A stretch of 29,454 bases of DNA. It comes from Candidatus Thorarchaeota archaeon. GTDB lineage: Archaea > Asgardarchaeota > Thorarchaeia > Thorarchaeales > Thorarchaeaceae. The stretch spans positions 37,581-67,034 of the forward strand of contig JBHLRS010000015.1 in NCBI GenBank assembly GCA_048882325.1. The letters run 5' to 3'. The translations under genes and the position numbers were made by a program. The notes below the pieces were generated by a model. That model did no database searches and was not told where the DNA came from. It was given only the letters and a program-made list of their open reading frames with translations. How positions within the stretch are numbered: the first letter of the stretch is position 1; every line of letters starts with the position of its first letter. Below, piece after piece: positions 5,514-26,600 of the stretch.

Positions 5514-6773
5514 ATGACAGAAAAGTGGGCCGCAGAGAAGTGGCTATCAGTAGACCCACAATCACGTCCGGGCAGATTTGGTCTGAGTCCGAATTTGTGG
5601 CGACTCGCTGCTGTTATTGCTATTGCTCAATTCTCGACAGCTCTATGGAAATGGCAGTTTGGAATCTTTCTAGAAGGATATCTAGAACCTTGGCAGATTG
5701 GTCTTGTGTTTTCTATAGCAACATTCACCGGACTAATCGGTAGTATATCTTCAGGCTACATCGCAGATTTCATTGGTCGAAAGTGGACAATCTCCATTGG
5801 GTTCTTGCCAATTGTCATTGGCCTCCTAACAATGTCTTTTTTTCCTATCTGGCCTTTTGTTGCTGTACAGTATGGCCTTGTTTGGTTTGGGATGAGCACT
5901 ACTCGTCTAATGTCAAGAGCCATTCCAGCTGATGAGATAGCTGCTGATGACGGAAGCAACCCCGCTCGCAGACTCATGATGGTTATGATGCCTCTCTGGT
6001 TCGTTGATGCATTGGGTCCCCTGACAGGATCTTTCCTCTTGGATGCTGGTTATCAGCCTGGAAATCTTCATCTAATCGGATCAATTTGTGCCATATTCAC
6101 CTTTGCTTCTTCCATTGTCTTGCTAAAGGAATCATTAGGAAGTGAGGTGATTAAGAAAGCACGTGCTGGTCCTAAGATATCCGTGCGAAATCTTGGTCGA
6201 AGTTTTTGGATTCTAGCAATCGGAATGATAGGTTTCGTCTTCTCATGGAGTAGTTCAATTCCCTATCTAGGTAATCTTAGTGTTGGTCCGTGGGCTGTTG
6301 ATACAGTGACGTACGGTCTTACTTGGAGTCTATTTTCTCTGACAAGCGCACTCATCATGTACCCTGCAAGCTCACTTGCTGATAGAAATCTGAAAGGAAC
6401 TCTCATTGCTGGTGTAGCTGGCAATGCTGCAATCTTCATGTGGTTTAGTCAGGGAAGCGGCGTTGTAATGATGTATATCATCAACTTTGTGTGGGCTATT
6501 CCTTTTGTACTTTGGACTGGGTCTGTGAAGAGTATAATTGTACTCGTTGTATCCGAAGAGGTGAAGGGAAGGGCATTAGGAACATACGACCTTTTGATGG
6601 GAATAGTAGGCATGGGTGCTCAAATTTCCGGGGCTACTATCTGGGAGTTTTCTGGAAGCCTTCGTTTAGTCTACGCAATAGCAGGAGTCATTGGAATGGC
6701 AACTGCTGCACTAATATCCATTTTACTAAGGTACATTCACATTCCAAATCATGCAACAATTATTGAGCAGTAG
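5514..6773 (+). CDS. Major facilitator superfamily transporter
   Basis: Motif A GYIADFIGRK, second-half 'LADR', 'KGRALG', about 12 TM segments. Confidence 0.92.
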   Translation: MTEKWAAEKWLSVDPQSRPGRFGLSPNLWRLAAVIAIAQFSTALWKWQFGIFLEGYLEPWQIGLVFSIATFTGLIGSISSGYIADFIGRKWTISIGFLPIVIGLLTMSFFPIWPFVAVQYGLVWFGMSTTRLMSRAIPADEIAADDGSNPARRLMMVMMPLWFVDALGPLTGSFLLDAGYQPGNLHLIGSICAIFTFASSIVLLKESLGSEVIKKARAGPKISVRNLGRSFWILAIGMIGFVFSWSSSIPYLGNLSVGPWAVDTVTYGLTWSLFSLTSALIMYPASSLADRNLKGTLIAGVAGNAAIFMWFSQGSGVVMMYIINFVWAIPFVLWTGSVKSIIVLVVSEEVKGRALGTYDLLMGIVGMGAQISGATIWEFSGSLRLVYAIAGVIGMATAALISILLRYIHIPNHATIIEQ

Positions 6774-6800
6774 TATGAGAAGCGTTTGATTAATAAGTAG

Positions 6801-6827
6801 GTAGAAATCTACGCAGTAGAAATCTAC
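6801..6827. promoter_or_regulatory. Tandem palindromic operator (GTAGA-AA-TCTAC) x2, putative PadR binding sites
   Basis: Identical 12-mers at 6801-6812 and 6816-6827, located between the AT-rich TATA-like TTAATAA (~6790-6796) and the PadR start. Confidence 0.7.
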
Positions 6828-6842
6828 GTAGTTGTGTATTCA

Positions 6843-7385
6843 ATGAGTAAACAGATCAAGCTGTTCCTACCAACACCTGAAAAGCTGACCCCAATACAAG
6901 CTTTAATTCTGATACAGCTCTTGGATACTCCCAAATATGGCTACGAGATACTTCGGGGTCTTCGAGATGGCTTTCGAGGTGCATGGGAACCTAAGACAGG
7001 AACTATTTACCCTACTCTTAAAGCACTTGAGAAAAAGGGGCACATTTCAAAGTCAACTCAAGGGGAGAAGACTCACTATACTCTTACTGAGAAAGGAAGA
7101 GAGGTGATTCAAGAGATGAGTGATTATGTGGCTGAATATCTCTTGATCAATTCACGATTTATAGAATCTACCGTAGACAATATGCCACCTCTTTTCACAC
7201 AAGAGGTATTTTCAAAGATTCACATGGCTGGTATTGATGAGATATTACCTGAAGCTACAATATTGGACGCTATCAGCAACCTCCCAGACGCTGAACTCAA
7301 GAGAGCATTCTTGGAACTAAGGAAATCAATTCTTCAACGAAAACTCCGACAGGTGAACAAACATCTCAAAGATTTAGATACCTGA
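6843..7385 (+). CDS. PadR-family transcriptional regulator
   Basis: LILIQLLDTPKYGYEI...GTIYPTLKALEKKG...HYTLTEKGR is a PadR wHTH. ATG 6843 preferred; the ORF track starts at 6834. Confidence 0.92.
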   Translation: MSKQIKLFLPTPEKLTPIQALILIQLLDTPKYGYEILRGLRDGFRGAWEPKTGTIYPTLKALEKKGHISKSTQGEKTHYTLTEKGREVIQEMSDYVAEYLLINSRFIESTVDNMPPLFTQEVFSKIHMAGIDEILPEATILDAISNLPDAELKRAFLELRKSILQRKLRQVNKHLKDLDT

Positions 7386-7394
7386 GGTGACCAA

Positions 7395-8801
7395 GTGAAA
7401 GAATACGATGTGATTATTGTTGGTGCAGGACCGGGAGGGTCAACTGCAGCAAAGGAGTCTGCAGAGAAGGGCTTTAAGACTATTTTCTTTGAGCGTGGCA
7501 GAAAACCAGGTGAGAAGAACTCTTCAGGAACAGGTCTTGGTCCACGTCTGTGGCGAGAGTTTGACATCATGAAGGAATTGAATCCTGAAGACTGTCCATC
7601 GATGAGACCTGGTGCTGCTGCAAGGAATTATTTCGTGGATACTGAGGGTGAGGTGACTGGCTACATAATGACCCGACCAACCAAGTCAGTATCCTATGAG
7701 CCTGCAAAAAGCATGATCACTATGAATTGCTACCGCAGCGAGTTTGACCCTTGGCTTGCGAATTTTGCTGTAAATGCGGGTGCTGAATTGAAGACATCCA
7801 CTCTTGTCACAGGTCTCTTGAAGGAGGACGGCAAGGTTGTTGGGGTGATAGATGAAAAGGGGGAGAAGTACAAAGGCCTGGTCATAGGTGCAGATGGGGC
7901 TGTATCCATGGTTGCCCAGCAATCAGGGTTGCGAAAAAGATGGGATCAGAAACACGTGACCTTGACCCTTCAGTATGACTTTGAGTGCTCAGCATCTAAG
8001 ATAGATGACATAATGGGCGATGAGGCATTAGCTGTGTGGTGGTCCGCTACATTTCCTGCAGCATATCAGGTATTCTTCAACTCCAGTTTTCATATTGGCT
8101 TTGGTAATTGGATGACTTGGTGGGATAAGAATCCTATTCATTATCTTAACAGAGTTGTCAATTTGAAGTATTTCCAACGATTGGCAAGAATTCTTGATGC
8201 CAAACCACGAGAGTTCCAAGTGCATCTTCTACCGTGGCAAGGAATGCCTGAGAACACTCACACGGATAACGTGATACTTATTGGTGATGCGGGCGGATTT
8301 CCATGTCCTCTTGAGGCTGAGGGGATTTACCCTGCCATGGTGACGGGTAGAGTCGCTATCGAAACTGCTGCTACAGCCTTATCCGCTGACGACACTTCAA
8401 AGTATTTCCTTTCACTATATGATGAGAAATGGATGGCCACATCCATTGGAGAGGATTTCAAGTCCGGTCCAGAACTGCAGAGTATATGGATGGCACTTCC
8501 TTTCAGTCCTAGAAAATCGATGTCTTGGTTCGTACCTTTGTTCATGGAAATAATAGGTGGCATCATCGATTGGTCCGAACCACATCCTGTGAGAATTCGT
8601 CAGGTTGCACGGAGAATCAAGAATTACCTTCCTCAACTAGTTCCATTCATCGTAAAAGAGGTGATTCCACTTCTCACTTCAGTATTAGGGGAGGACCGGA
8701 TGGATATGTTGACAGATCCTGAAAAGCTACTTACGGAAATTCCAGAGATAGAGGAAGCCTTAGCTATGGCCTTCATGAAAGAGGAGGATGCACAGAGATG
8801 A
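7395..8801 (+). CDS. FAD-dependent oxidoreductase, FixC/geranylgeranyl-reductase superfamily (FixC-like)
   Basis: GAGPGG dinucleotide-binding motif, ERG..PGEKN..G (FixC-type), RSEFDPWLA, ADG and GDAGG...EGI motifs. SD GAGGTGA at 7384-7390 precedes the GTG. Confidence 0.85.
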   Translation: MKEYDVIIVGAGPGGSTAAKESAEKGFKTIFFERGRKPGEKNSSGTGLGPRLWREFDIMKELNPEDCPSMRPGAAARNYFVDTEGEVTGYIMTRPTKSVSYEPAKSMITMNCYRSEFDPWLANFAVNAGAELKTSTLVTGLLKEDGKVVGVIDEKGEKYKGLVIGADGAVSMVAQQSGLRKRWDQKHVTLTLQYDFECSASKIDDIMGDEALAVWWSATFPAAYQVFFNSSFHIGFGNWMTWWDKNPIHYLNRVVNLKYFQRLARILDAKPREFQVHLLPWQGMPENTHTDNVILIGDAGGFPCPLEAEGIYPAMVTGRVAIETAATALSADDTSKYFLSLYDEKWMATSIGEDFKSGPELQSIWMALPFSPRKSMSWFVPLFMEIIGGIIDWSEPHPVRIRQVARRIKNYLPQLVPFIVKEVIPLLTSVLGEDRMDMLTDPEKLLTEIPEIEEALAMAFMKEEDAQR

Positions 8802-9067
8802 AGATAGACCATAAGAAACTCGTGAAGCGAATCCCCGGAGCCAGCGACTTCATCAGTATTGACACAGAAAAGTGTACTCTGTGCGAACGATGCCTCGTCA
8901 TCTGTGTGATGAACCTCTGGAAGAAAAGCGAAGACAAAGTGTACATCAAAGACGACTATACATCACTCTGTTTGGAGTGCGGAGCTTGTGCTCAGGTCTG
9001 CGAGAGTGACGCAATAGATTTTAGATTCCCTAATGGAGGAACTGGTATAGTCATCGAACAAGGATAA
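8798..9067 (+). CDS. FixX-like 2x[4Fe-4S] ferredoxin
   Basis: CTLCERCLVIC and CLECGACAQVC clusters, with a FixX-type C-terminus FRFPNGGTGIVIEQG. ATGA overlap with the upstream gene. Confidence 0.88.
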   Translation: MKIDHKKLVKRIPGASDFISIDTEKCTLCERCLVICVMNLWKKSEDKVYIKDDYTSLCLECGACAQVCESDAIDFRFPNGGTGIVIEQG

Positions 9068-9098
9068 CAACGACATAACAAGGACGCGAAACACAACC

Positions 9099-10532
9099 AT
9101 GATTACAGCGGTGACCAAGATTGTTGGAGATGATAGGGTCTCTGGCAAACCCGAGATACTAGAGAATTACACCGGAGATTTCTCTCCTTCATTAGTTGTC
9201 TGGCCAATGTCAACTGAAGAGATAGTTGAGATTATTTCTTGGGCCAACAAGAAATCAGTTGCACTTGTTCCAGTTAGTTCTGGAGGACCTAGGCGACGGG
9301 GTTCATCATTACCCAAAGTAAGGAATTCAGTAATCGTAGATTTAAGTAAGATGAATAGGATTCTTCGAGTTGACACTAAGAATAAGGTGGTCATGATTGA
9401 ACCTGGGGTTACATATGGACAACTTATTCCAGAACTCAAGAAGAACGGTCTACGGCCACTCATGCCCCTACTTCCAAAAGCTACCAAGTCCGTTTTGACT
9501 AGTTGTTTAGATCGAGAACCGACTACAATCCCACGATTTCATTGGGACCTCTCAGATCCATTGCTATGTACTGAAACTGTGTTTGGCTCAGGTGATACTT
9601 TACGTACAGGATCTGCTGCAGGTCCTGGCTCGATTGAGGAACAGTGGGCCTCAGGTCAAGCTCAGAAGAATCCTCAAGGACCTTCGCAGTTTGACCCCTT
9701 CAGGATTATTCAGGGGTCTCAAGGAACAATAGGAATCACAACCTGGATCACCATGAAATGTGAATTGCTCCCTGAGTTTCATCACATCTATCTTGCAGGT
9801 GCAGGGAGTCCGGGTGAATTTGAGGAGTTTAATCAAGCTCTTCTTCGTCGACGTCTAGTGGATGAGCATTTCATGATCAATTCTTCTGCTCTCTCAGCAG
9901 CTCTTAGGATGGAGAAAGAGATACCAACTTGGATCTTGGTTGTTGGAGTATCCGGACATGGAGTACTTTCCTCTGAAGAGATTCAATATCGATCTGATGA
10001 TACTTTGGACATTGCTCGAGGAATGAATATCGATCTCAGCACGTTTCTTGGAAACCTAACAGGAGAAGAGGTAGGCTCCATTCTAGATAGACCAAGTGGA
10101 AGAACTTACTGGAAATATGATAAGAGAGGTATCTGTAGAGAGGTCATTTTCACCACGACACTCGACCGAGTTAACCACCTATATACAGCTTTTACTCAGA
10201 TTGCTCATCATGTTGGGTTTCCCATCGAGCAGATTGGAGCATATATCCAACCAGTCGTGCAAGGAGTGATGGCTGAATGTATATTCGATCTTTATGGTAA
10301 TCCAGAGAACGCGGATGAAGCAAAATCCCTGAATGCACTCCTTCGAGATGGTAGGAAAAAGTTGCTTGATGAAGGTGCATTCTTCAGCAGGCCTTATGGT
10401 TCCATAACTGATTCAGTATTTGAAATTACTTCACCTGAGATGGTTAAAACGATCCAAAGCGTGAAGACGATTTTTGATCCCAATCATGTCTTGAATCCCG
10501 GCACTCTATGCTTCAAGGAGGTATCAAAATGA
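9099..10532 (+). CDS. FAD-binding oxidoreductase, VAO/PCMH (GlcD/GlcE-like) family
   Basis: PSLVVWP.STEE, VDLSKMNRIL.VD, IEPGVT, GSQGTIGITT, and C-terminal K..FDPNHVLNPG. Confidence 0.88.
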   Translation: MITAVTKIVGDDRVSGKPEILENYTGDFSPSLVVWPMSTEEIVEIISWANKKSVALVPVSSGGPRRRGSSLPKVRNSVIVDLSKMNRILRVDTKNKVVMIEPGVTYGQLIPELKKNGLRPLMPLLPKATKSVLTSCLDREPTTIPRFHWDLSDPLLCTETVFGSGDTLRTGSAAGPGSIEEQWASGQAQKNPQGPSQFDPFRIIQGSQGTIGITTWITMKCELLPEFHHIYLAGAGSPGEFEEFNQALLRRRLVDEHFMINSSALSAALRMEKEIPTWILVVGVSGHGVLSSEEIQYRSDDTLDIARGMNIDLSTFLGNLTGEEVGSILDRPSGRTYWKYDKRGICREVIFTTTLDRVNHLYTAFTQIAHHVGFPIEQIGAYIQPVVQGVMAECIFDLYGNPENADEAKSLNALLRDGRKKLLDEGAFFSRPYGSITDSVFEITSPEMVKTIQSVKTIFDPNHVLNPGTLCFKEVSK

Positions 10533-11800
10533 CTCTCGACAAGTTCGAAGAAATGATGGATAGCTGTGTCCGCTGTTCGAAGTGTAAATACATTCCACAG
10601 ATTGCCATCAGAAGTCAACGTTTCTCCCACATCTGTCCCTCCATCCAGTACTACAACTTCCATGCTTACTCAGGTGGTGGCAGGATGATTATGGCTAATG
10701 CCTATCACAAGGGACGACTTGAGTGGACCCAAGAGATGCTTGATATCCTCTACCAGTGTACGAACTGTGGTGGTTGCGAGGTTTCATGTAAGTGGGTATA
10801 TGACCTTGAGCCAAATGAGGTAATACACGAACTCAGGGTTCAGGCTGTCAAGTCTGGTGTTGGACCAATGCCAGCCCATAGGAAGTATATCGAACTTGTC
10901 AAGGGCGGCAAAAATCCCTACGGAGAACCCATTGAGAAACGAAGTGAATGGCTTACTGATGACATCGAGATTGATGAGAGTTCTTCGACCCTTTACTTTG
11001 TAGGGTGTACTGCATCACTCCGTAGAGAAGAGATTGCAATGAGTACTGCTAAGATCTTAAACATTGTCAATGAACCATTCAGAATCCTTGGGTCAGATGA
11101 GATGTGTTGTGGGAGTCCTGTGTATCGAGTAGGAGATAGACCGAGTGCAATTGAGATCATGAAGAAGAATATAGAGATTTTCAGGGAGCAGGGTATTGAG
11201 AGGATTATCACAAGCTGTTCTGGATGTTTCAACATGCTGAAAACAGAGTATCCTCGGTTTGTTGAACATGATTTCGAGGTTGTCCACACCTCACAGCTCA
11301 TTGAGCAACTTCTCATTGAAGAACGATTACGACCAATCAGAGAGGTTCCACTCAATGTCACCTATCATGACCCGTGTCATCTTGGTAGAATGTCCGAGCC
11401 ATATGAGCCCTATGAAGGTGAGAAGGTAGAGCTATTATCTCAAGTGTACATCTGGGATCCCCCAAAACCACTCAGACAAGGAACACATGGAGTCTATGAT
11501 GCTCCACGGTATGTTTTGAACCAACTCCCTGGTGTAGAATTCATCGAAATGGAGCGAATAAGAGAATACTCGTACTGTTGTGGTGCAGGAGCTGGATGCA
11601 AGTCCGCGTATCCTGACTTTGCTTTGTTTGCATCCAATGAAAGAGTAGAAGAGGCTGAATCTACGGGGGCTGAAGCTCTGATATCCACATGTCCCTTCTG
11701 CAAGACCAGCTTACAGGAAGCAATAATGACCGGGGAGAAACCTATGATCTTTCTTGACCTCACACAATTGGTGTTGAGAACACTGGAGGTGGATGAATAG
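10529..11800 (+). CDS. Fe-S oxidoreductase subunit, GlcF/GlpC/HdrD-like (ferredoxin domain + two CCG domains)
   Basis: CVRCSKC...CP, CTNCGGCEVSC, CCG...CSGC, YHDPCHLGR, CCGAGAG...CPFC. ATG 10529 (ATGA overlap) with SD GGAGGT preferred over 10508. Confidence 0.92.
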   Translation: MTLDKFEEMMDSCVRCSKCKYIPQIAIRSQRFSHICPSIQYYNFHAYSGGGRMIMANAYHKGRLEWTQEMLDILYQCTNCGGCEVSCKWVYDLEPNEVIHELRVQAVKSGVGPMPAHRKYIELVKGGKNPYGEPIEKRSEWLTDDIEIDESSSTLYFVGCTASLRREEIAMSTAKILNIVNEPFRILGSDEMCCGSPVYRVGDRPSAIEIMKKNIEIFREQGIERIITSCSGCFNMLKTEYPRFVEHDFEVVHTSQLIEQLLIEERLRPIREVPLNVTYHDPCHLGRMSEPYEPYEGEKVELLSQVYIWDPPKPLRQGTHGVYDAPRYVLNQLPGVEFIEMERIREYSYCCGAGAGCKSAYPDFALFASNERVEEAESTGAEALISTCPFCKTSLQEAIMTGEKPMIFLDLTQLVLRTLEVDE

Positions 11801-13384
11801 ATGCTAGAAGATAAAGTCTTCAATAGACTCAGCGCTGCAGTAGGAGAGCGCTATGCTACGCGATCACCAGCGATCCTTGACACTTATGCTTTCCAGTGGT
11901 GCTATGAGATTGAGAGTGTCCAGAGAGGTGATGAACCATCAAGATTTGGTATCCGTCCAGCGGCAGTGGTTCTACCAGAGACCACAGAACAAGTCCAGAA
12001 AATTGTTCGTATCTGCAACGAACATGATGTGAAGTTCAAACCCTTCAGTACTGGTATGGGTCCTTGGGCTGGGGTTTCTCATCCTCGGTCCATACAGATT
12101 GACCTCCGTCGAATGAACAAGATTGTTGAGGTAGATCCGAAGAACATGTATGTAGTCATTGAACCTTATGTCACCAATGCGGAGCTACAATCTGAGTTGT
12201 TCAAGTATGGTCTTATGCATCATGCACAAGGTGCAGGACCACAGACATCACCATTGGCTAGTCATACATCATTCGTAGGACCAGGGTTCACGTCACCATA
12301 TACTGGCTTTAGTGGTCGCAATCTTCTCGGAGCAGAGTGGGTGTTACCTAATGGTGAGCTTCTCAAGGTTGGCTCGTATGAGTACACCGGGAAATGGTTC
12401 AGCGGTGATGGTCCCGGATTCAGTTTGCGTGGTGTGATTCGAGGTTGGATGGGTGCTTATGGGGGACTTGGTGTTTTTACAAAGGCTGCTATCAAGCTCT
12501 ATTCTTGGCCAGCTCCGAAAGACTTCAAATGGGAGGTCAGTGGGACTGTGCCGCATTATAACTGGAAAGTCCCTCCACATTGGAAAATGTTCGTACTGAA
12601 TTTCCCTGAATGGGAACAGTTCGAACCTGCGTTCTATGAACTCAATGATCATGATGCAGTCATGATGGCGACCTGCTCCTCAGCTGAGGGTCTGGCTGGT
12701 CTTTTCACAGACACTAGGATGGAAGCGATTGAGACAATCTTTGGAGGATTGCTACTCAAAGCCAAGAGGTTCTTTATCGTCCTGGTGACTGCACACACAG
12801 AACGAGAGTTCAACTACAGAACGAAACTAATCCTGACAATTATGGAGAAGCACGGAGGGAATGATCTCATTGAGGATGGAGTGATCACTCCTAGAAATTC
12901 TCACTATGCAGAGTCCGTTCGGAATATGCTAGGTGGTCATGCATTTCGTTTCTCCAACTGTTTCCAGAGCACCCATGGTGGGATGGATACAATAGCACTC
13001 GCTGTAAAGATTGCAAAGGTCAATCAACCAATTAAATTCAAGTACATCGAAAAAGGAGTCATCGGAGATGATCGAGGCGAGGGTATCTGGACCACAGCTT
13101 ATGAAAGCGGTCATACAGCACACCTCGAGGTGCCTACTGTCTATAATGCGGCATCTGTTGACTCGTGCAAGGGATATGCAGAGTATCAGGACGAATGCAA
13201 TGAGGTTGACCTACAGAATGCGTTAGGTATGCCCTTCTTCATAGTTGGCGATAAAGTGCATGACAACTATGGTCCAAGGACTATGAATTATCCGAAGTGG
13301 TTGCGTAGGATTAAGACAACCTTTGACCCCAACAATGTCGGGGACTCAAGTCACTATATTTCTACACCAAAAAGCGAGGAATGA
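11801..13384 (+). CDS. Second FAD-binding oxidoreductase, VAO/PCMH family
   Basis: PAAVVLPETTEQVQKIV..CN, IDLRRMNKI.EVD, IEPYVT, LGAEWVLPNGE, GGLGVFTK, IK.TFDPNN. Start immediately follows the upstream TAG; SD GGAGGTG. Confidence 0.9.
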   Translation: MLEDKVFNRLSAAVGERYATRSPAILDTYAFQWCYEIESVQRGDEPSRFGIRPAAVVLPETTEQVQKIVRICNEHDVKFKPFSTGMGPWAGVSHPRSIQIDLRRMNKIVEVDPKNMYVVIEPYVTNAELQSELFKYGLMHHAQGAGPQTSPLASHTSFVGPGFTSPYTGFSGRNLLGAEWVLPNGELLKVGSYEYTGKWFSGDGPGFSLRGVIRGWMGAYGGLGVFTKAAIKLYSWPAPKDFKWEVSGTVPHYNWKVPPHWKMFVLNFPEWEQFEPAFYELNDHDAVMMATCSSAEGLAGLFTDTRMEAIETIFGGLLLKAKRFFIVLVTAHTEREFNYRTKLILTIMEKHGGNDLIEDGVITPRNSHYAESVRNMLGGHAFRFSNCFQSTHGGMDTIALAVKIAKVNQPIKFKYIEKGVIGDDRGEGIWTTAYESGHTAHLEVPTVYNAASVDSCKGYAEYQDECNEVDLQNALGMPFFIVGDKVHDNYGPRTMNYPKWLRRIKTTFDPNNVGDSSHYISTPKSEE

Positions 13385-14466
13385 CAATGAAAGACATTAT
13401 CAGTAAAAACGTTAGTGAAGGCTGGACGGGTCCTGGGAGGCGTGACGGTTCTATAGTTCCAATGGATCCAGAGGATGATGCATTACATATCGACGTTGGT
13501 AAAAAGAACCAGTTTGAATGGTGGTACTTTGATGCTCATCTTGATGGTGGCTACACTCTTGTTGCCTTTTTCCATGCAGGTAATCCGAATCCCGGACCAA
13601 CATCTGGTAAGGTAGGTGTAGAGCTTGTTCTCCTAAGACCCGATGGTAGAAAAACTCAGAAATTCGTGAAATATGACAAGTCTGAATTTTCTGCATCAAG
13701 AGAGAAAGCAGATGTTAAAATTGGTAATAACTATATGAGGGTCGATTACAATAAAGGCGACCTTCCGGTGTATGAACTTCATCTTGATGAGGGGGAGCTT
13801 GCTTTCGATCTTACCTACACTTGTGAAGTGAAACCTTGGAAGCCAGGAAATGGATTCATTCACTTTCATGAGAAGGACTTCCTTACTTGGATTGTTCCCT
13901 TTGCAAGGGCATCAGTAAAAGGAACTATCCGCGACGGTGAGCAGACAATGTCTGTCACTGGTGTAGGGTATCATGACCATAATTGGTTGAATTTCTCCTT
14001 TCAAAGTATTATTGAGTATTGGATGTGGGGTCGATTATATACAGACAATTTCACCGTTTCTTATGCATTCATTCAATGCAATGAGAAAGTCGATAATCAC
14101 CAGATTAAGGTCCTACTACTTGCAAAAGGCCAAGAACCGATTCTTAGTACTGGTGATTTCGAATTTGCAATTGATGATTTTGAGTATAATGATAGTGCAA
14201 AACATAGCTATCCACACAATCTCAGAATCCGTGTCCCTGATGAAATGGAAGCCAGTCTTAAAGTATCCAAGATTCTTGAGGCTGTAGACATGCTGGATAA
14301 TTTCAATCCAGTTCTTCGGTTTTTAGCGAAAAATCTCCTTCGTATGAAACCAGGCTACTTCCGTCTTCTCTCCAACTTTGAACTTGAAGTGCATCATCAA
14401 GGTCAAGCCTACAAAGAAACCGGATCTACACTCCACGAGATCGTATTATTCAAGTCTGCTGAATAA
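13381..14466 (+). CDS. CrtC/AttH-like (lipocalin-like double beta-barrel) hydratase/cyclase-fold protein
   Basis: FEWWYFDA, GYHDHNW and W.WGR motifs, characteristic of the hydroxyneurosporene synthase / kievitone hydratase / AttH-like superfamily. ATGA overlap with the upstream gene. Confidence 0.75.
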   Translation: MTMKDIISKNVSEGWTGPGRRDGSIVPMDPEDDALHIDVGKKNQFEWWYFDAHLDGGYTLVAFFHAGNPNPGPTSGKVGVELVLLRPDGRKTQKFVKYDKSEFSASREKADVKIGNNYMRVDYNKGDLPVYELHLDEGELAFDLTYTCEVKPWKPGNGFIHFHEKDFLTWIVPFARASVKGTIRDGEQTMSVTGVGYHDHNWLNFSFQSIIEYWMWGRLYTDNFTVSYAFIQCNEKVDNHQIKVLLLAKGQEPILSTGDFEFAIDDFEYNDSAKHSYPHNLRIRVPDEMEASLKVSKILEAVDMLDNFNPVLRFLAKNLLRMKPGYFRLLSNFELEVHHQGQAYKETGSTLHEIVLFKSAE

Positions 14467-14541: not shown

Positions 14542-15831
14542 TTATACAAACTCATCTGGAGACGCATGAACCTCTGAATCTATCTCTAACTCCATCATTT
14601 TGTCAATCTGAGCCTCAAGATTCTCGAGCACTGAACAAGACCCCTTTGAAAGAATTTCTTCAACAGTTTCTACCATTGAGCTATCAATCATAAGGTGTTG
14701 ATTTAATTCACCCTCCGCTTGAAGTTTCGAGAGATTGCCAACACCTTTCTCTATTCTTGCCGCGAGTTCCCAGTAAGGCTTGGATGCTTTTCGAGGCATA
14801 CCAAAGAATATGTTCATACGAAAGACTATGTCTAGTAACACGCCAAGGACTCGATTGTTGGATTCGAACTCGTGTGGTATCTTATGCCGAACAGATCGGT
14901 CACGGACTCCAAACTCTTTGCAGACATTGCGTCCTTGCACCATCACATTTGCTGGTAATCGTTTCCAGATAGGTTGACCATATGTATTGTTGTTTTCATA
15001 GATTCTTTTCATTGTGTTGTAGTTGTCAGGATATCTTCTATTTATGACTCGCATGAAGTACTCTTTCTGGCGACCCGGTTTGAGAGTCATACTTCCAAAC
15101 TGAATAAACTCACCATTTGCAGATTTTGTGGCCTTCACAAGTTCTGTCATGTTCTCGATGTTGTCTCCAATGGTTGGTATGATTGGAGTTGCCATTACCC
15201 CTCCGTAAAGGCCTTCTCTACGAATCTCTTTTAGTGCGGCAAACCTCTCTGAGCTTGTTGATGCCTTTGGTTCAAATACCCTTTGAACCTCATCATTTGC
15301 ACAAGTTATTGTGAAGACTATGTTTGCAAAGGCTCTTTCGTGAATCTCTTTCAAGAGGTCCATATATTCCAAAACCAGATCGGATTTTGTCAGGATGAAT
15401 ACAGGCAATCCATAATCCAGCAGAGTTTCGAGAATTCGATATGTTACTTTGTGCTTTCTTTCTGCTTGTTGAAACCCATCACTGACGCCCCCACATGCAC
15501 CAATTACAAGTTTGCGTGGGACTTTTTCTGCCATCCGTTTGGCATCCTCTTCATCAAGAAAGGACCACAGGGTTTCAGTTTCCAACTCAGACCTTGAGGT
15601 ATAGCCTAATTTCTTCAGTTCCTTTCTAAGAATTTGATCTGCATTCTCTTTTACTCTGATATGAGAGTAGAAATTATCGACATGATAGTACTCTGAGTTA
15701 CCATCACAATAGACACAGCCATGTTCACACCCTCGATATGCATTTAGACTTCGGTTCATGTGGAACCAACTATCTGCAACATGTGGTTTTGATAGCAGAG
15801 TTCTTGCCTTTACACACTCATATCGCATCAT
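14542..15831 (-). CDS. Radical SAM protein, SplB/Rv2578c-like, with C-terminal PolX-N-like helical domain
   Basis: LNAYRGCEHGCVYC (CxxxCxxC), IRVKENA, ILTKSDLV, FEP.A....RF, PIIP.I.D. Confidence 0.88.
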   Translation of the reverse strand: MMRYECVKARTLLSKPHVADSWFHMNRSLNAYRGCEHGCVYCDGNSEYYHVDNFYSHIRVKENADQILRKELKKLGYTSRSELETETLWSFLDEEDAKRMAEKVPRKLVIGACGGVSDGFQQAERKHKVTYRILETLLDYGLPVFILTKSDLVLEYMDLLKEIHERAFANIVFTITCANDEVQRVFEPKASTSSERFAALKEIRREGLYGGVMATPIIPTIGDNIENMTELVKATKSANGEFIQFGSMTLKPGRQKEYFMRVINRRYPDNYNTMKRIYENNNTYGQPIWKRLPANVMVQGRNVCKEFGVRDRSVRHKIPHEFESNNRVLGVLLDIVFRMNIFFGMPRKASKPYWELAARIEKGVGNLSKLQAEGELNQHLMIDSSMVETVEEILSKGSCSVLENLEAQIDKMMELEIDSEVHASPDEFV

Positions 15832-16001: not shown

Positions 16002-17741
16002 GTGTTCCCGGTGACTGATGAGAATCGCGATATCTCGTGGCTGCACAAGGTTATGGAGGTAGTCAGGGATGGTTTTATTGTGATTCAAGATGAAGACATC
16101 ATCCTCACCAATTCTGCCTTTTCTGATATGTTAGGATACGAGAAGGATGAATTGCTGGACACCGCATTTGAGGATCTTGTTGATTCAGTTTCAAAGAGAA
16201 GAGATCAGGATATGATTGAAGCCCTTGTCACTGGTGAGCATGCAACACGTTTCATCACTCGTCTGAATGCAAAGAATAACGATGTTCTACATGTTGAAAT
16301 AACACCAACTGAGATTAAACTAGAAGGAGAACCAGCGATTATTGCGACCGTCCGGGACATCACTTCCCAGATGGAACTAGAGGCTGCTGTGACAGAACTG
16401 GAGAACAGGTTTGCTACTCTATATGATATGTCACCTGTGGCATACTTGACCTTGAATCGTAATGGAATAATAGAGCAGGTCAATGCGGCAGCTGAGAGTC
16501 TACTCGGTTGTGAAGCTGATTATCTCATTGGAAAGTCCCTCTCAGAGTTCCTCCCAGCTCCAGAACCACAGTATGACCCTGGTGCAGACATAGTACGGGA
16601 AGCTCTGCGCGGCAAGGGGGTAAATGGTCTAGAGATTCAAATGAAACGTGGTGATGACAAAATCATATGGGTCAATATTTCTTCCAGTCCACTCAATTCA
16701 GGAACTGAAAAGGTCAGTGAAATTGGACTTACTGCCTTTGATGTGACAACTCGACGTGGAGTTGAACAAAGGCTTCGACATGAGAGTGAGAGAGCGAACT
16801 TGTACATGGAGGTCATGAGTAGTGATCTAAACATGACCAACCAGAATGTTCTCTTTGCTATGGAAGATCTTTCTATCTCACTTGATCTCCCTGACCGCCT
16901 CCAGGGTTTGTTAAGTGAAACCTCATGGAGCGTTCGTAGTGCAGGTAGAATGATTGCCAACATGGGTGTCTTGATTTCGCTGGGTCAAGCACCACCAGAG
17001 AAGATTGAGACCAAACTCCAACCGCACTATAACAAAGCCGTTAGAGAAGCGACTCGTGACTTTTCCTGGAAGACCTTGAATATTACTTCGAACATTCCTA
17101 AGCAATCTTTTGATGTTGTAGGACATGCATTCCTCTGGTATGTCTTCTTCAACATCATTCATTATTGCGCAAGCTCTGACCCCAACACAACCGTAGAGCT
17201 TGAAATTAAAGCGGACATCACTGAAGATGGTGATATGGTCCGGATAGAATTCTTGGACAGTGGCCCTGGTATCCCTGATGAACTTAAGGATCAGATTTTC
17301 AGACGAACTGGAGATTCAGAAGAACAACTAGCAGGCAAAGGTCTCGGCTTGACAGTAGTTGACAGATACATAGACCATCTTGGAGGGAGAGTCTGGGTTG
17401 AAGACAGAGACCCCAAAGATCTCTCTAAAGGTAGCAAGTTCATAGTTCTTATCCCGGCTTGGAAAGAGGAGCTCAAGATACCTCCTATCATCTTTTACAA
17501 ATCGGTTCATTGTGTATTTTGTGGGCCTGTATTGGAGTCACTGACCTCGGTCTTGTCCGAGATGAACATAAGTCCATCAAACATTCACATCATCAATGTG
17601 GATGATCCTACTTCGGAGGTCACTGAAGACGAGCTACCAGCACTTCCTACGATTAACATGGGTAATAAGCAACTTGCGGGATTCATCTCAGAGGATGACC
17701 TGAGGGTCGAAGTAACATCCATGCTTCTGATGTCTGGTTGA
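16002..17741 (+). CDS. PAS-PAS histidine-kinase-like protein lacking the phospho-His, with C-terminal thioredoxin-like (CVFC) domain
   Basis: Two PAS/PAC units (N.AF..MLGY...EL / RDIT; VNAAAE.LLG / DVT). Degenerate H-box MSSDLN, G1 DSGPGI, G2 GKGLGL. Tail FYKSVHCVFC...INVDD...LPT...G. GTG start. Confidence 0.85.
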   Translation: MFPVTDENRDISWLHKVMEVVRDGFIVIQDEDIILTNSAFSDMLGYEKDELLDTAFEDLVDSVSKRRDQDMIEALVTGEHATRFITRLNAKNNDVLHVEITPTEIKLEGEPAIIATVRDITSQMELEAAVTELENRFATLYDMSPVAYLTLNRNGIIEQVNAAAESLLGCEADYLIGKSLSEFLPAPEPQYDPGADIVREALRGKGVNGLEIQMKRGDDKIIWVNISSSPLNSGTEKVSEIGLTAFDVTTRRGVEQRLRHESERANLYMEVMSSDLNMTNQNVLFAMEDLSISLDLPDRLQGLLSETSWSVRSAGRMIANMGVLISLGQAPPEKIETKLQPHYNKAVREATRDFSWKTLNITSNIPKQSFDVVGHAFLWYVFFNIIHYCASSDPNTTVELEIKADITEDGDMVRIEFLDSGPGIPDELKDQIFRRTGDSEEQLAGKGLGLTVVDRYIDHLGGRVWVEDRDPKDLSKGSKFIVLIPAWKEELKIPPIIFYKSVHCVFCGPVLESLTSVLSEMNISPSNIHIINVDDPTSEVTEDELPALPTINMGNKQLAGFISEDDLRVEVTSMLLMSG

Positions 17742-20377: not shown

Positions 20378-21829
20378 TCAATCAGAATCAAACACTAAGG
20401 TCTTAATTACTACTGGAACAACAACATCCTCGATGATTGGTTCTCCTATGTCCACGAAGTCTCCTTCTTTAAGTCGAATCTCATCTATCGAGAGTAATTC
20501 GTTTGTAACTCCGGTTTCGCGTTTCATGACATTACCAACACTATTCCCAATATCAGCATCGAAGCACATGAAGATTGGTGCTTTGCTATTGATGGAGTTC
20601 GGCAATGCACTGACAACTCCTGTTGCGAACTCTGTGAGATTCTCATATGATGGTCTAACAGAGTTGTTGAACGCCAAGATGAGAGGGTCCAACCCTTCAA
20701 TCAAATCGAACCTTGAAAGTGCACTCTCTATGGCCCTCCTGACATCATCAGCTGAGGGTTTTCTTGTTCCAATGAATGGTTCGATTACGGGTAGATTTCG
20801 TAGTGGATATTTAAGACCCGAAGTGAGAAAGGTTGTAGATCCACTTACTTGAAGGCTAAAGTTTCCAGCTCCAATCACAGTTGCACGTATCCTGTGCTCG
20901 GGCTTACCAATTGGCAAGCTTGCATCCTCTGCTTTCTTCATGATTGCTTGTGCTAGGAAGACACCGAGGTCATTGAACTCACGTTCCTCGCTGTTGTAGA
21001 TGTATTCTGCAACACCGCCGGAGAATGTAAGGCTGTCAATCTTCTCATTGTAAATTAGTGGAGGTGCCATCATGAGCATCTTAGTTGTCTGGGACAACTG
21101 CTTCTGTTGGATACACTCCATGAGTGCTTCCGCTAATACATCCGCGAGTTTCATCTTGTCTGATTCTGAGATAATCTGACCTATCTCTAGATTGAGCCCG
21201 TTTGCTTTTGCTATATTCCTACCAGTATCTTCCAACCTCACGATGTGTTGATTCTCATCAATTGCAAGTAGCCGTCCTCCTACATTGATAGCAGTGGTTG
21301 CGACTACTCGACCCTCTTTGCATACAGCAATATTCGAAGATCCCCCGCCAATATCGACATTCATGATTGTTTCTTGAGTGTCAGCTGATTTTGTAACAGC
21401 GCCAGAACCATATGCTGCAAGAACTGATTCAAAGTTTGGTCCTGCTGTGGCTGCCACGAATTTCCCTGCCTCACCCGCTAGGGCACTGACAATCCACTCT
21501 GCATTCTCTTTCTTAGCTGTTTCGCCTGTGATGATGACTGCTCCCGTGTCGATATCCGAGACCTTGATTCCTGCTGTGTGGTAGTCATGAAGGAGTAGGT
21601 CTCTCAGTTGTTCAAAATCGATATTTCTATGGTCCCTAAAAGGAGTCAAATGTATTGGACCAGAATGGAGAATCTTGCGTTCCTTGACCTCGAACTTTTC
21701 GGTTCGGGAAGCTTCATCCTTCTCAAGTACAAGCTGACTGAACACGACATGTGAGGTTGATGAACCGATATCAACTCCCACACTAGTAAGTTCCTTTCGC
21801 TTTGTTTTGACAATCATGACCGTGTTCAC
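20378..21829 (-). CDS. eutA: Ethanolamine ammonia-lyase reactivating factor EutA-like ATPase (ASKHA fold)
   Basis: SVGVDIGSSTSHVVFS, TGAVIITGETAKKENA, AG.FVAATAGP..ES.LA..GSGA, DIGGG, NVGGRL, FSGGVA, IRATVIGAG, SIDEI...GDFVDIG.P....VVPVVIKTLVF. Confidence 0.92.
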   Translation of the reverse strand: MNTVMIVKTKRKELTSVGVDIGSSTSHVVFSQLVLEKDEASRTEKFEVKERKILHSGPIHLTPFRDHRNIDFEQLRDLLLHDYHTAGIKVSDIDTGAVIITGETAKKENAEWIVSALAGEAGKFVAATAGPNFESVLAAYGSGAVTKSADTQETIMNVDIGGGSSNIAVCKEGRVVATTAINVGGRLLAIDENQHIVRLEDTGRNIAKANGLNLEIGQIISESDKMKLADVLAEALMECIQQKQLSQTTKMLMMAPPLIYNEKIDSLTFSGGVAEYIYNSEEREFNDLGVFLAQAIMKKAEDASLPIGKPEHRIRATVIGAGNFSLQVSGSTTFLTSGLKYPLRNLPVIEPFIGTRKPSADDVRRAIESALSRFDLIEGLDPLILAFNNSVRPSYENLTEFATGVVSALPNSINSKAPIFMCFDADIGNSVGNVMKRETGVTNELLSIDEIRLKEGDFVDIGEPIIEDVVVPVVIKTLVFDSD

Positions 21830-23530: not shown

Positions 23531-23624
23531 GTACGCCCAACAAATGGGTATTGGAAGGAGGGAGGCAAGAGCCAGCTCCTTCCATCAGATCTTTAATTGG
23601 TCTATCGATTACCTCTTCATGATG
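23531..23624. repeat. Copy A of a diverged ~95-bp direct repeat containing hairpin TGGAAGGAG-N15-CTCCTTCCA (23552-23584)
   Basis: Hand alignment to 26851-26946 (see findings). Lies at and just past the stop codon of the LVIVD gene. Confidence 0.65.
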
Positions 23625-26600
23625 GTTTACGTTTCATGAAGACCACAATGATTACAATGATGACTACAGCCCCGAGTCCACCTAGAATGAGCGCCATGGT
23701 GCCAAGGTTCGGAGGCGCACTAGTAGTAGGTGTAGTGGTAGGCGTTGTGGGTGAAGTGGTAGTAGTGGGTGTAGTTATTTGCTGCTCCTGGACCGTGACT
23801 GAGAACTCACCACTCAGAACATTGTCATATGTATCATTCACCTGCACCTGAAGACCATATACGCCGGCTGTAAGGGGAGTCGTGTTGGTGATTACACCAA
23901 AGGAATCAATAGCGAAATGAGCCGTGTCATTGATCCACCAGCTGCTGATACCCGTTAACGCTGAAGCATTCAGGTCATAACGGAAAGGCGCAAGGAACTC
24001 GACCACCTTGTTGGTGGGCGTCTGATCCCATGTAGGACCAGTGGTATCAATTGTCATGATCCATGGTGAAGAAAAGAGGCTCAGGACACCATCTGTGTCA
24101 TTCACAGCAACTCTCCAGTACCAGACGCCATCTGGAAGCACTAGCGCAGTGCAGTTCTTCCAACCTACAGGCACGGTGATATTGACCAAGTTAATCGAAT
24201 CGAAGGTCGTTACCGTGTCCAGCTGGACTAGATAGCTCACGCCAACATAGATATCAGTCCATTGCAGGAGCGGCGTATTGTCACCTACATATTGTCCATT
24301 TGATGGTGAAGTCAGCGAGGGTGCATCAAGTCTGACACTATATGCAATACTCAAACTAGACAACACCGGGGTCTGATTCCACTGGGTCGTCGAAAAGACA
24401 GCACGCCAGCAGAGCTGGTTGCCGCTGTTCACAAAGTTATGCTGGACTCCTGGGGTGACAGGCTCCCAGTGCAGCCCATCATCCGCTGATAGATAGTATG
24501 TAGTTGAAGTGTTGAGTGACTGAGTCTCGGTCACTTGCAGTGTGGCATGGATTAGTGAATATCCTTGGTTGACTGCGACCGATTGAGCCATGGCAGAGGA
24601 TGCATATTCGCGACAGAGATTCCGCTGCACCTCTATCACCCGCAGCCCCAAACCTCGAACGGCGCCATAGACATAGTCACCGCTCACATAAACACCATTC
24701 AAAGCACCAGGAGATGTTTCATACTCACCTGCCAGTGACGGATGTGCAGGATCGGTGATGTTCACCACCTTCAAGCCTGAACTAAAATCAGCGACATAGG
24801 CATAGTCACCGCTCACATAGACGTTAACCGCAGTGGCAGTAGTATAGTTACCAGCCAAGGTGGGATGTGCAGGGTCGGTGATGTTGACCACCTGCAGCCC
24901 TGAATCATAATCAGCGACATAGGCATAGTTACCACTCACATACACCCCATACGCCGTAGAAGGAGTAGCACAGGTAGTAACAGTAGTGGGGTTAGTGGGG
25001 TCAGTGATGTTGACCACATCCAACCCTGAATTACTAGCGACATAGGCATAGTCACCGTTAACATACACACCATGCGCACCACTGGAGGGCATCTGGTAAC
25101 CTATAACAATGGGATCAGTGGGGTCCGTGATGTTGAACACCCAAAAATTGCCCGTTTGATCAACTGCATAGGCACAGCCACCACTTACATAAACTCCTTG
25201 GAAATTATTGCCACCGCTAAAGCGACCCACCACCGAGGGGTGAGTTGGATCGGTGATGTTAACCACAACCACGTACGTTCCAAAGTCACCAGCGATATAG
25301 GCATAGTCACCGCTCACATACACATCATACGCCATGCCAACAGCAGTATTCTCAGCAACCATAAAGGGATGAGCTGGGTCAGTGATGTTGACCACTTGCA
25401 GCCCCCTAGTGTAAGCAGCGATATAGGCAAAATCACCGCTCACGTATACATCATATGCGAGTCCAGCAAGAGGATTAGTATCGGCACCAGCCAACGAAGG
25501 TGGAATAGAGTTGGCGATTTTGACTACCTTCAGTCCTGAACCACCATCAGCAACATAGGCATACTCACCGCTAACATACACTCCCCCCGCATATGTAGTA
25601 GCACAGAAACCAGCCAGTGACGGATGTGCAGGATTGGTGATGTTCACTACCTCAAGACTTGATAAATCAGCAACATAGGCATAATCACCGCTCACATAGA
25701 CATCCACCGAATTACCTGGAGTGTCACTGGAACCTACCAACATCGGATGTGTCGGGTCAGTGATGTTCACTACCTGTAGCCCTGAAGTATAAGCAGCGAT
25801 ATAGGCATAGTCACCACTCACATACACCTCACGTGAATTGCCAGCAATAGCACCGGAACCAGCCAATGACGGATGTGTGGGGTCGGTTATATTGATCACA
25901 TTCAGCGTTGAGTATACATTAGTGACGTACGCATAGTCACCGCTTACATAGACTCCAGTTGCACCATTAATGCTGTATGAACCAGCCAGCGACGGATGTG
26001 TAGGATCTGTGATATTCACCACCTTCAAGCCTGAACTAAAATCAGAGACATAGGCATAGTCGCCACTCACATATACTCCAAATGGATTACTAGTAGCAAA
26101 GGAACCAGCCAGTGACGGATGTGCAGGGTCGGTGATGTTCACCACCTTCAAGTCTGAACCACCATCAGCGACATAGGCATAGTCGCCACTCACATACACT
26201 CGCTGCGCATTACTAGTAGGACAAGAACCAGCCAGCGACGGATGTGCAGGGTCGATGATGTTCACCACCAAGAGCCCTAAATTCCCACCAGCGACAAACG
26301 CATAGTCACCACTCACATATACTCCCCACGCGTTATTAGTAGCAAAGGAACCAGCGACGAAAGGATTCTTATGCGACAGGGTCAAATTGCCTGTTCCCCA
26401 GCCGGAGGTAGTCGAGTTGGCCGCATCCATGTAAGTAGTAGAGGTGAAGTCCTCAGTATAGACCTCATCTGCAGCTACTGCGAAATCTCCTCGCTGCGTG
26501 GTTGGATTTCTCGGTTCGGTCACAGACGTGTTTTGACTGACTGTTCGAACCGGATTACTGTTTATCGAAATCGGAACTTCGATAATCATCAATATAAAAA

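Follow-up and report, generated by a model that had tools for sequence, protein, structure and literature searches.

We analysed a 29,454-nt window of contig JBHLRS010000015.1 from a Candidatus Thorarchaeota archaeon; coordinates given without a contig or locus name are positions in this window. The window carries an operon that encodes, in order, a PadR-family regulator, a FixC-like flavoprotein, a 2[4Fe-4S] ferredoxin, a VAO/PCMH-superfamily flavoprotein (VAO1), an iron-sulfur (Fe-S) protein with CCG domains (CCG), a second VAO/PCMH-superfamily flavoprotein (VAO2) and a protein of the AttH/CrtC fold (AttH-like). The host genome (3.6 Mb, 93% complete) is that of an Asgard archaeon. The AttH-like gene has its closest relative in a Promethearchaeota metagenome-assembled genome (MAG; 92% identity) and most of its other relatives in Thorarchaeota MAGs.

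The seven operon genes all lie on the + strand between 6843 and 14466, with overlaps or gaps of no more than 31 nt (Table 1). A first-pass annotation, made from the DNA alone, had described this cluster together with an upstream major facilitator superfamily (MFS) gene, and all eight open reading frames are present as described. On direct reading, the cluster and all of the listed junctions are real. ATGA overlaps at 8798 (a 4-nt overlap between the FixC-like and ferredoxin genes) and 10529 each have an AGGAGG-type Shine-Dalgarno sequence upstream, and the TAG and ATG that abut at 11800/11801 have GGAGGTG just upstream. There is also an ATGA at 13381, where VAO2 meets the AttH-like gene, but the start of the AttH-like gene was probably misassigned to it. 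The ATG at 13387 is the more likely start, because GAGGA then lies 7 nt upstream rather than 1 nt, and because homologues align from residue 3, where the methionine is near-invariant. All seven operon proteins are predicted to be soluble, and none has a transmembrane segment. Domains, junctions and the conserved neighbourhood described below together bear out the gene content and the tight coupling of the genes.

Table 1. Features of the operon and its upstream region. Positions refer to the window.
Feature	Position	Strand	Basis
MFS transporter, doubtful member of the unit	5514..6773	+	MFS_1, 42 bits
TATA-like box TTAATAAGTA, putative padR operon promoter	6790..6799	+	direct reading; similar element in 9 related loci
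Candidate PadR operator, two GTAGAAATCTAC copies	6801..6827	+	2 exact matches vs 0.14 expected by chance
PadR-family regulator, 180 aa, long (subfamily-1-size) form	6843..7385	+	PF03551, 60.6 bits
FixC/ETF-QO/GGR-superfamily FAD protein (FixC-like), 468 aa	7395..8801	+	FAD_binding_3; TIGR02032, 137.2 bits
FixX-like 2[4Fe-4S] ferredoxin, 89 aa	8798..9067	+	two CxxCxxCxxxC motifs
VAO1, VAO/PCMH-superfamily flavoprotein, 477 aa	9099..10532	+	FAD_binding_4, 62 bits
CCG, GlcF/HdrD-like Fe-S subunit, 423 aa	10529..11800	+	CCG, 122 bits; Fer4_8
VAO2, VAO/PCMH-superfamily flavoprotein, divergent cap domain, 527 aa	11801..13384	+	FAD_binding_4 only, 85.8 bits
AttH/CrtC-fold hydro-lyase-like protein, 361 aa	13381..14466	+	PF07143 (CrtC N-terminal lipocalin), 34.1 bits (cut-off 22.5)

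The 69-nt gap 5' of padR contains TTAATAAGTA, followed directly by two tandem GTAGAAATCTAC palindromes at 6801-6812 and 6816-6827. The proximal palindrome (GTAGA-A/T-ATCTAC) is found 27-28 nt before the padR start codon in 9 of 10 related loci that carry padR. A degenerate second copy lies upstream of it in those nine, and an A/T-rich ...ATAAGTA/ATAAAG element occupies the matching place in nine related loci. We infer that TTAATAAGTA is the TATA-like box of the promoter. The regulator has the winged-helix domain of the PadR family and a palindromic candidate operator at its own promoter, to which it is predicted to bind, so the PadR control proposed in the first-pass annotation gains a conserved candidate site. 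PadR is probably an autoregulated repressor of the whole unit, since an operator directly downstream of the TATA box would block transcription initiation. In the 10 related loci with padR, the gene heads the cluster; in two of them (L003 and L014) it stands directly before VAO1, and the FixC/X-like pair is missing. As the MFS gene lies 5' of the TATA box and operator, and is found upstream of the cluster in just one other related locus (L024), we do not count it as part of the conserved unit. It has a 43% identical paralogue elsewhere in the genome. Import through this transporter, which had been suggested as the opening step of the pathway, is therefore not borne out.

Gene neighbourhoods were compared in two sets of loci. 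Among 34 loci gathered by similarity to the AttH-like protein, 19 had enough flanking sequence for adjacency to be counted, and the VAO1-CCG-VAO2-AttH block is contiguous in 18 of these. PadR is present in 10 of the 34 loci and the FixC-like and ferredoxin genes in 11, and in Atabeyarchaeia the four-gene core stands alone. An AttH-like orthologue occurs in 106 of 400 Asgard species genomes. A second large Asgard family (L046, L048 and L053) keeps the core and has the FixC/X-like pair inverted and divergently transcribed, and a third (L049 and L050) has the order AttH-CCG-VAO1-VAO2. The trio and the AttH-like gene are also adjacent in Deltaproteobacteria, Chloroflexota, Actinomycetota, Nitrososphaerota and Bathyarchaeota. 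The clustering is thus far beyond chance, and it survives inverted and rearranged gene orders both in bacteria and in other Asgard families. A lack of conservation, one of the grounds on which the first-pass annotation would have rejected its own reading, is not what these loci show.

A different pattern appears when loci are chosen solely by similarity to VAO2. One profile scan of species-representative genomes returned more than 584 VAO2 relatives, from groups including Deltaproteobacteria, Chloroflexota, Actinomycetota, Nitrososphaerota, Bathyarchaeota, Methanomassiliicoccales, Jordarchaeota and Freyarchaeota. Within the 79 best loci, an AttH-like gene is present in 18 and a FixC/X-like pair in 13, and these are divided by gene order. 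Type A trios (VAO1-CCG-VAO2, as in the window) have the FixC/X-like pair in 13 of 38 loci and the AttH-like gene in none, while type B trios (CCG-VAO1-VAO2) have the AttH-like gene in 18 of 41 and the FixC-like gene in none. The VAO1-CCG-VAO2 trio is therefore the core of a very large uncharacterised family of anaerobic bacteria and archaea with two gene orders, and the AttH-like gene and FixC/X-like pair are separable accessory modules of it. Whereas the 79 loci split these modules between the two types, the Thorarchaeia-type operon joins both of them to a type A trio.

The AttH-like protein of the window is 56-62% identical to the bacterial and TACK copies, and the trio proteins are just 33-38% identical. 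In a quick maximum-likelihood tree, midpoint-rooted and not used for any inference on a donor, the AttH-like proteins form one supported clade with the bacterial and TACK sequences nested among those of Asgard archaea. Variants of the trio were also seen. Loci in Helarchaeota (L038, 7213-13147) and Lokiarchaeota (L039, 5636-11590) have the arrangement VAO1-CCG-VAO2-VAO2' and no AttH-like gene, and the duplicated third subunit recurs in some Dehalococcoidia. In Paraburkholderia sediminicola RL18-120-BIB-A (L062, 6582-12328), a type B trio is followed by an Amidohydro_2 gene and an AraC regulator, and CoA ligase, OmpW and molybdenum hydroxylase genes lie upstream. This cultured bacterium is a possible genetic model for the trio family. 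Eight Desulfobacterota loci (L066-L071, L085 and L099) were considered as trios and rejected, as they are two-gene FAD+CCG pairs.

The trio has the subunit architecture of the GlcDEF glycolate dehydrogenase: two FAD_binding_4 proteins and a protein with a Fer4 domain and two CCG domains. CCG aligns end to end with Escherichia coli GlcF (20% identity) and scores 194 bits against TfrB. It has two ferredoxin-type clusters and two complete CCG motifs, and the cluster cysteines are invariant or near-invariant in 15 homologues. In E. coli GlcDEF, GlcE is short, whereas both flavoproteins of the window are full length, and glc-type neighbours are missing from the window. The likeness of the flavoproteins to GlcD is limited. 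VAO1 and VAO2 are 23-25% identical to E. coli GlcD in the FAD domain only, and score 60-70 bits against TIGR00387 (glcD; cut-off 568). The FAD-oxidase_C domain (PF02913) reaches 16.7 bits in VAO1 against a cut-off of 21.2 and gives no match in VAO2. GlcD, LctD, LDHD and the 9qgz glycolate oxidase carry the metal/substrate motifs HxGDGNxH and GEHGxG; neither motif occurs in VAO1 or VAO2. On these sequence features, VAO1 and VAO2 are not canonical 2-hydroxyacid (glycolate or D-lactate) dehydrogenases, the identity that the first-pass annotation had named as fatal to its reading. A genome-wide regex search found no canonical GlcD motif in the host genome. This makes it less likely that the "true" GlcD is one of the other paralogues, even though some of these have good FAD-oxidase_C domains. 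The genome holds five further FAD_binding_4 + CCG pairs (L041 on contig C34, L042 and L043 on C11, L044 on C18 and L045 on C4), two or three of them with good FAD-oxidase_C domains. One has a radical S-adenosylmethionine (SAM) gene and a second CCG protein as neighbours, one a short-chain dehydrogenase/reductase gene, and one lies near an MFS gene.

By sequence, the solved proteins nearest to VAO1 and VAO2 are PCMH, 4-ethylphenol oxidase and eugenol oxidase, and the best match of VAO1 in a profile search is the PCMH subunit PchF (103.8 bits). The 4-phenol oxidases bind phenolate through a Tyr-Tyr-Arg triad (Tyr95, Tyr473 and Arg474 in PCMH numbering). In hidden Markov model alignments, as opposed to structural superpositions, VAO1 keeps the arginine (R431), with a serine aligned to Tyr473 and a variable Arg/Lys position aligned to Tyr95; for VAO2, the Tyr-Arg pair aligns within an insertion missing from the family. 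Judged by these residues, neither protein is a typical 4-phenol oxidase of the VAO, PchF or EUGO kind, and a 4-alkylphenol substrate is doubtful. The AlphaFold2 (AF2) model of VAO2 (pLDDT 84.6) is equally near LDHD and the 4-phenol oxidases in Foldseek searches, with TM scores of about 0.7. A prediction of the VAO1-CCG complex, with each protein in its own alignment and run without controls, scored 0.00 and speaks neither for nor against binding.

The label FixC/FixX-like holds for the accessory pair. The FixC-like protein is 27% identical to E. coli FixC (88 bits) and as close to it as to the geranylgeranyl reductase (GGR) paralogues of its own genome (56-110 bits), and its best solved relatives are FixC 7koe_C (77 bits) and GGR 3oz2 (65 bits). 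Its TIGR02032 score is under the cut-off of 158.8, and the NCBIfam FixC model gives 82 against a cut-off of 610. In the GGR structures, the signatures of GGR are a YxWxFP motif and an active-site cysteine. The FixC-like protein has YQVFFN in place of YxWxFP, a serine aligned with the cysteine, and KN as in FixC, while 8 of the 10 other GGR paralogues of the genome have YxWxFP. By these signatures, the FixC-like protein is not a proper geranylgeranyl reductase (digeranylgeranylglycerophospholipid reductase). The ferredoxin is 31% identical to E. coli FixX over residues 19-89 and matches FixX 7koe_D over its full length (25 bits). As in the FixABCX/EtfABCX systems (Thermotoga 7KOE; E. coli FixCX), a FixC-like FAD protein is followed by an overlapping ferredoxin of about 90 residues. 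Those systems have FixAB/electron-transfer flavoprotein (ETF) genes, and the window has none adjacent; the partner of the pair appears to be the VAO1-CCG-VAO2 trio in place of ETF.

The expansion of the GGR family in this genome is striking. There are 11 paralogues including the one in the window, nine of them above the TIGR02032 cut-off; the other ten are at C1:139736, C3:133502, C61:4197, C2:68077, C18:57394, C52:15332, C55:13271, C14:9809, C7:67159 and C28:12437. Around the best-scoring paralogue, a 30-kb region (C1:117000-147000) holds five CCG/HdrD-like genes and, about 1.5 kb from that paralogue, a MenA-like prenyltransferase gene (129.8 bits, above cut-off). This region may be a prenylated-quinone or lipid redox island. 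MqnA/D were not detected in the genome.

The AttH-like protein belongs to the CrtC/AttH superfamily both by its PF07143 score and by its double beta-barrel (lipocalin-like) fold. Its AF2 model (pLDDT 95.9) matches, in Foldseek searches, AttH 2ich (E 4e-13), kievitone hydratase 7a0t (E 3e-12), fungal pericyclases and 25-phosphosteroid lyase 9fzn, an enzyme of anaerobic sterol degradation; identity to solved superfamily members is 7-17%. Across 73 diverse relatives, 13 polar or aromatic residues hardly vary (E46, D51, Y197, H198, D199, H200, W202, W214, W216, R218, Y326, R328 and E353), a pattern that favours an enzyme over a passive binder of lipids. The Y197-H198-D199-H200-N-W202 block, with E46, D51 and E353, may correspond to the catalytic set of CrtC (H239, W241, Y266 and D268; PMC4717167). 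Conserved Asp, His, Trp and Tyr residues are what acid-catalysed chemistry at prenyl carbons calls for in the AttH/CrtC hydro-lyases (CrtC, kievitone hydratase, the OH-GDGT synthase Hgs and 25-phosphosteroid lyase). The window protein differs from them in forming its own orthologous group tied to the flavoprotein trio. Two fusions of AttH-like proteins were seen, a tandem double-AttH protein of 799 aa and a fusion with membrane Acyl_transf_3 of 725 aa (P0005 and P0102); they give no functional clue.

Protonation or elimination at a prenyl or tertiary carbon is the chemistry of the characterised relatives, and CrtC, kievitone hydratase and Hgs make tertiary alcohols. Tertiary alcohols cannot be dehydrogenated. 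An order in which hydration comes first and a flavoprotein then oxidises the new alcohol, as had been proposed for this cluster, is therefore unlikely. A better fit would be hydration after dehydrogenation, or reactions at separate carbons.

Taken together, our preferred reading, held tentatively at a probability of about 45%, is that the operon encodes an inducible, O2-independent system that dehydrogenates a hydrophobic, probably isoprenoid-type compound and adds water to it or eliminates water from it. PadR would keep the operon off until a hydrophobic ligand arrives. VAO1, CCG and VAO2 would form a complex of GlcDEF architecture, in which both FAD subunits connect to the ferredoxin-type and non-cubane (CCG) Fe-S clusters of the third. 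The complex would strip the substrate of a hydride or electrons, the electrons leaving through CCG. The FixC/X-like pair could then link these electrons to ferredoxin, to a lipophilic acceptor or to a second substrate double bond. The AttH/CrtC-fold enzyme would add or eliminate water at a C=C bond or tertiary carbon of the same molecule, and dehydrogenation and hydration together would amount to a water-dependent (anaerobic) hydroxylation or oxidation. By analogy, the AttH-like fold, the invariant acidic/His/Trp cluster and the action of relatives at prenyl or tertiary carbons support this reading. A prenyl chain or prenylated compound is the most likely type of substrate, a guess whose sole basis is membership of the AttH superfamily. 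Elsewhere the context of the cluster is catabolic and hydrophobic, with beta-oxidation genes nearby in a deltaproteobacterial MAG and the CoA ligase, OmpW and AraC genes of Paraburkholderia. The reading keeps the gene content, PadR control, FixC/FixX-like label, GlcDEF-like architecture and CrtC/AttH fold of the first-pass annotation, and does not adopt its MFS import, its order of steps or a 4-alkylphenol substrate.

Several observations weigh against this reading. The trio lacks the AttH-like gene in most of the 79 loci chosen by VAO2, so its core function does not require AttH. The conserved arginines of VAO1 (in a GPR loop and at R431) could point to an anionic group, either carboxylate or phosphate, and such a group is not an evident feature of a hydrophobic compound. 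FixAB/ETF genes were not found in the window or the related loci, and the sole ETF pair of the genome is on contig C48; the FixC-like protein, which is placed between FixC and GGR, could itself act to reduce C=C bonds and not as a partner in electron transfer. That dehydrogenation precedes hydration is a conjecture, and for a flavoenzyme it is difficult chemistry to take a hydride from an unactivated C-H bond. Furthermore, the substrate and the roles ascribed to each member are predictions. The resemblance to the trios of anaerobic benzene degraders, discussed next, is one of architecture (gene order, domains and sizes as given in the papers).

Trios of the same architecture have been described as "Magic" proteins #24-26 of Ca. 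Anaerobenzenivorax ORM2a (WAC08368-70; Toth et al. 2026, PMC13101534) and as BzS1_12970/80/90, which make up about one fifth of the detected BzS1 proteome (Musat et al. 2026, PMC13416013). In both of these anaerobic benzene degraders the trio is extremely abundant, and its products were modelled as a GlcDEF-like heterotrimer and proposed to act in benzene activation (PMC13101534, PMC13416013). As in the window, three consecutive genes encode a FAD oxidoreductase, a (Fe-S)-binding HdrC/D-like protein and a second FAD oxidoreductase; the first flavoprotein has FAD_binding_4 and a remnant of FAD-oxidase_C, and the last just an N-terminal FAD domain. Sizes are similar (54.5, 46.5 and 65.8 kDa, compared with 477, 423 and 527 aa). 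Hydratases and hydrophobic-substrate genes accompany both kinds of trio, with hydratase and beta-oxidation genes flanking those of the benzene degraders (PMC13101534, PMC13416013). The benzene clusters, unlike the window, have MaoC/enoyl-CoA hydratases, CoA ligase/transferases and a TetR regulator, and they lack the AttH-like gene, FixC/X-like pair and PadR that the window has. Both papers are silent on Asgard archaea, on AttH-like proteins and on FixC/X-like partners (PMC13101534, PMC13416013). No relatives from ORM2a, Pelotomaculum BPL, BzS1 or NaphS2 surfaced in a protein search with a bacterial-type VAO2 or in a contig profile scan.

One rival explanation is aromatic or phenolic catabolism. 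The trio would be a dehydrogenase of the PCMH/VAO kind that acts on an alkylphenol, a prenylated phenolic or an aromatic hydrocarbon, PadR would sense a phenolic compound, and the AttH-like protein, like kievitone hydratase, would hydrate a side chain of prenyl or alkenyl type. This explanation draws on the solved relatives of VAO1 and VAO2, the regulator family, the kievitone hydratase fold, the dominance of like-architecture trios in the proteomes of benzene degraders (PMC13101534, PMC13416013) and the Paraburkholderia locus, with its Amidohydro_2 (aromatic decarboxylase-type), CoA ligase, OmpW and AraC genes. We nevertheless consider it unlikely, given that the Tyr-Tyr-Arg triad is not conserved (VAO1 retains the arginine only and VAO2 lacks the Tyr-Arg pair), that no benzoyl-CoA or aromatic-ring pathway genes were seen within the window, and that Musat et al. 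judged low-identity homologues (NaphS2 and Desulfosarcina variabilis) likely to have other functions (PMC13416013). Tailoring of archaeal membrane lipids seems less probable still. Here the FixC-like protein as a GGR paralogue would, with the ferredoxin, saturate the chains of archaeol or glycerol dialkyl glycerol tetraethers (GDGTs), an Hgs-like AttH protein would hydroxylate them, and the trio would supply or remove electrons. The AttH-like hydratase Hgs does make hydroxylated GDGTs, the FixC-like protein is in the GGR superfamily (137 bits), and the genome has its 11 GGR-family members. However, 56-62% identical AttH-like orthologues stand beside the trio in Chloroflexota, Deltaproteobacteria and Actinomycetota, which have no archaeal lipids; the FixC-like protein lacks YxWxFP and the GGR cysteine; and a PadR repressor suggests an inducible rather than a housekeeping function. 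According to Garcia et al., Asgard archaea lack Hgs, whose homologues they found almost only in Methanobacteriota and Bathyarchaeota, and no B12-radical-SAM desaturase of the Ted type that goes with Hgs adjoins the AttH-like gene, whose neighbour is a convergent PA0069/Rv2578c-type gene.

The two other explanations that we weighed are less probable again. A purely energetic electron-bifurcating or confurcating module is very unlikely; in it the trio would replace EtfAB in an EtfABCX/FixABCX-like complex and couple ferredoxin to a disulfide or quinone at CCG with no dedicated organic substrate, and the AttH-like protein would carry a lipid or quinone. The recurrence of the FixC/X-like pair with the trio in the absence of ETF and the two complete CCG motifs, as in HdrB, are consistent with such a module, and bifurcation analogies are discussed in both benzene papers (PMC13101534, PMC13416013). 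The inducible PadR-type control, the catalytic look of the invariant acidic/His cluster of the AttH-like protein, and the hydratases, CoA ligases and beta-oxidation genes alongside the trio elsewhere argue against it, as does the failure to detect MqnA/D, though the genome does have the MenA-like match. The least probable explanation, by a small margin and likewise very unlikely, is an ordinary 2-hydroxyacid dehydrogenase of the GlcDEF or D-lactate-HdrD type beside unrelated genes. Homologues are named "glycolate oxidase" in databases, the GlcD model gives its weak matches, CCG aligns with GlcF over its whole length, and LDHD is among the top Foldseek matches. Set against these are the confinement of GlcD similarity to the FAD domain, the missing motifs, a cap domain that is below threshold or undetected, the existence in the same genome of other FAD_binding_4 + CCG pairs with good FAD-oxidase_C domains, and the linkage to the AttH-like and FixC/X-like genes, which outlasts rearrangement.

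It should also be noted what surrounds the operon. Convergent with it is a PA0069/Rv2578c-type radical SAM gene (14542-15831, - strand), followed by a PAS-PAS histidine-kinase-like gene (16002-17741, + strand). Both also trail the cluster in five close relatives (L008, L012, L024, L029 and L033), which is probably synteny by descent rather than a functional link. Farther along are a full-length EutA-like reactivase gene (20378-21829, - strand; 473 bits), with no eutBC nearby, and a gene for a 1009-aa LVIVD-repeat surface-type protein (23617-26646, - strand). The LVIVD repeats and the GC content had prompted us to consider Methanosarcina and methanophenazine biosynthesis, a reading dropped when the relatives proved to be Asgard.

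What is new here is the joining of a trio of GlcDEF architecture to a FixC/X-like pair, an AttH-like enzyme and PadR, in an enzyme family that has barely been explored. The trio family is among the most widespread uncharacterised redox modules that we have seen in anaerobes, and its architecture has recently been proposed as that of the long-sought anaerobic benzene-activating enzyme (PMC13101534, PMC13416013). As a rather unlikely but broader speculation, the trio may be a new class of flavin/Fe-S enzyme. Together with a hydro-lyase it would use water, and no O2, to functionalise C-H or C=C bonds that are poorly activated, whether in hydrocarbons or in isoprenoid chains; the "Magic" cluster and the Asgard operon would then be two specialisations of one ancient mechanism widespread in anoxic sediments. 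The Asgard operon offers several handles on this family: a well-defined accessory enzyme with the prenyl-hydratase fold, an electron-transfer pair of its own, and a regulator. This regulator has a clear candidate operator and should respond to the substrate itself or to a closely related compound. The relatives in cultured Paraburkholderia also offer access. Solving this system could reveal a general anaerobic route for oxidising hydrophobic compounds, as well as a carbon source of sediment Asgard archaea.

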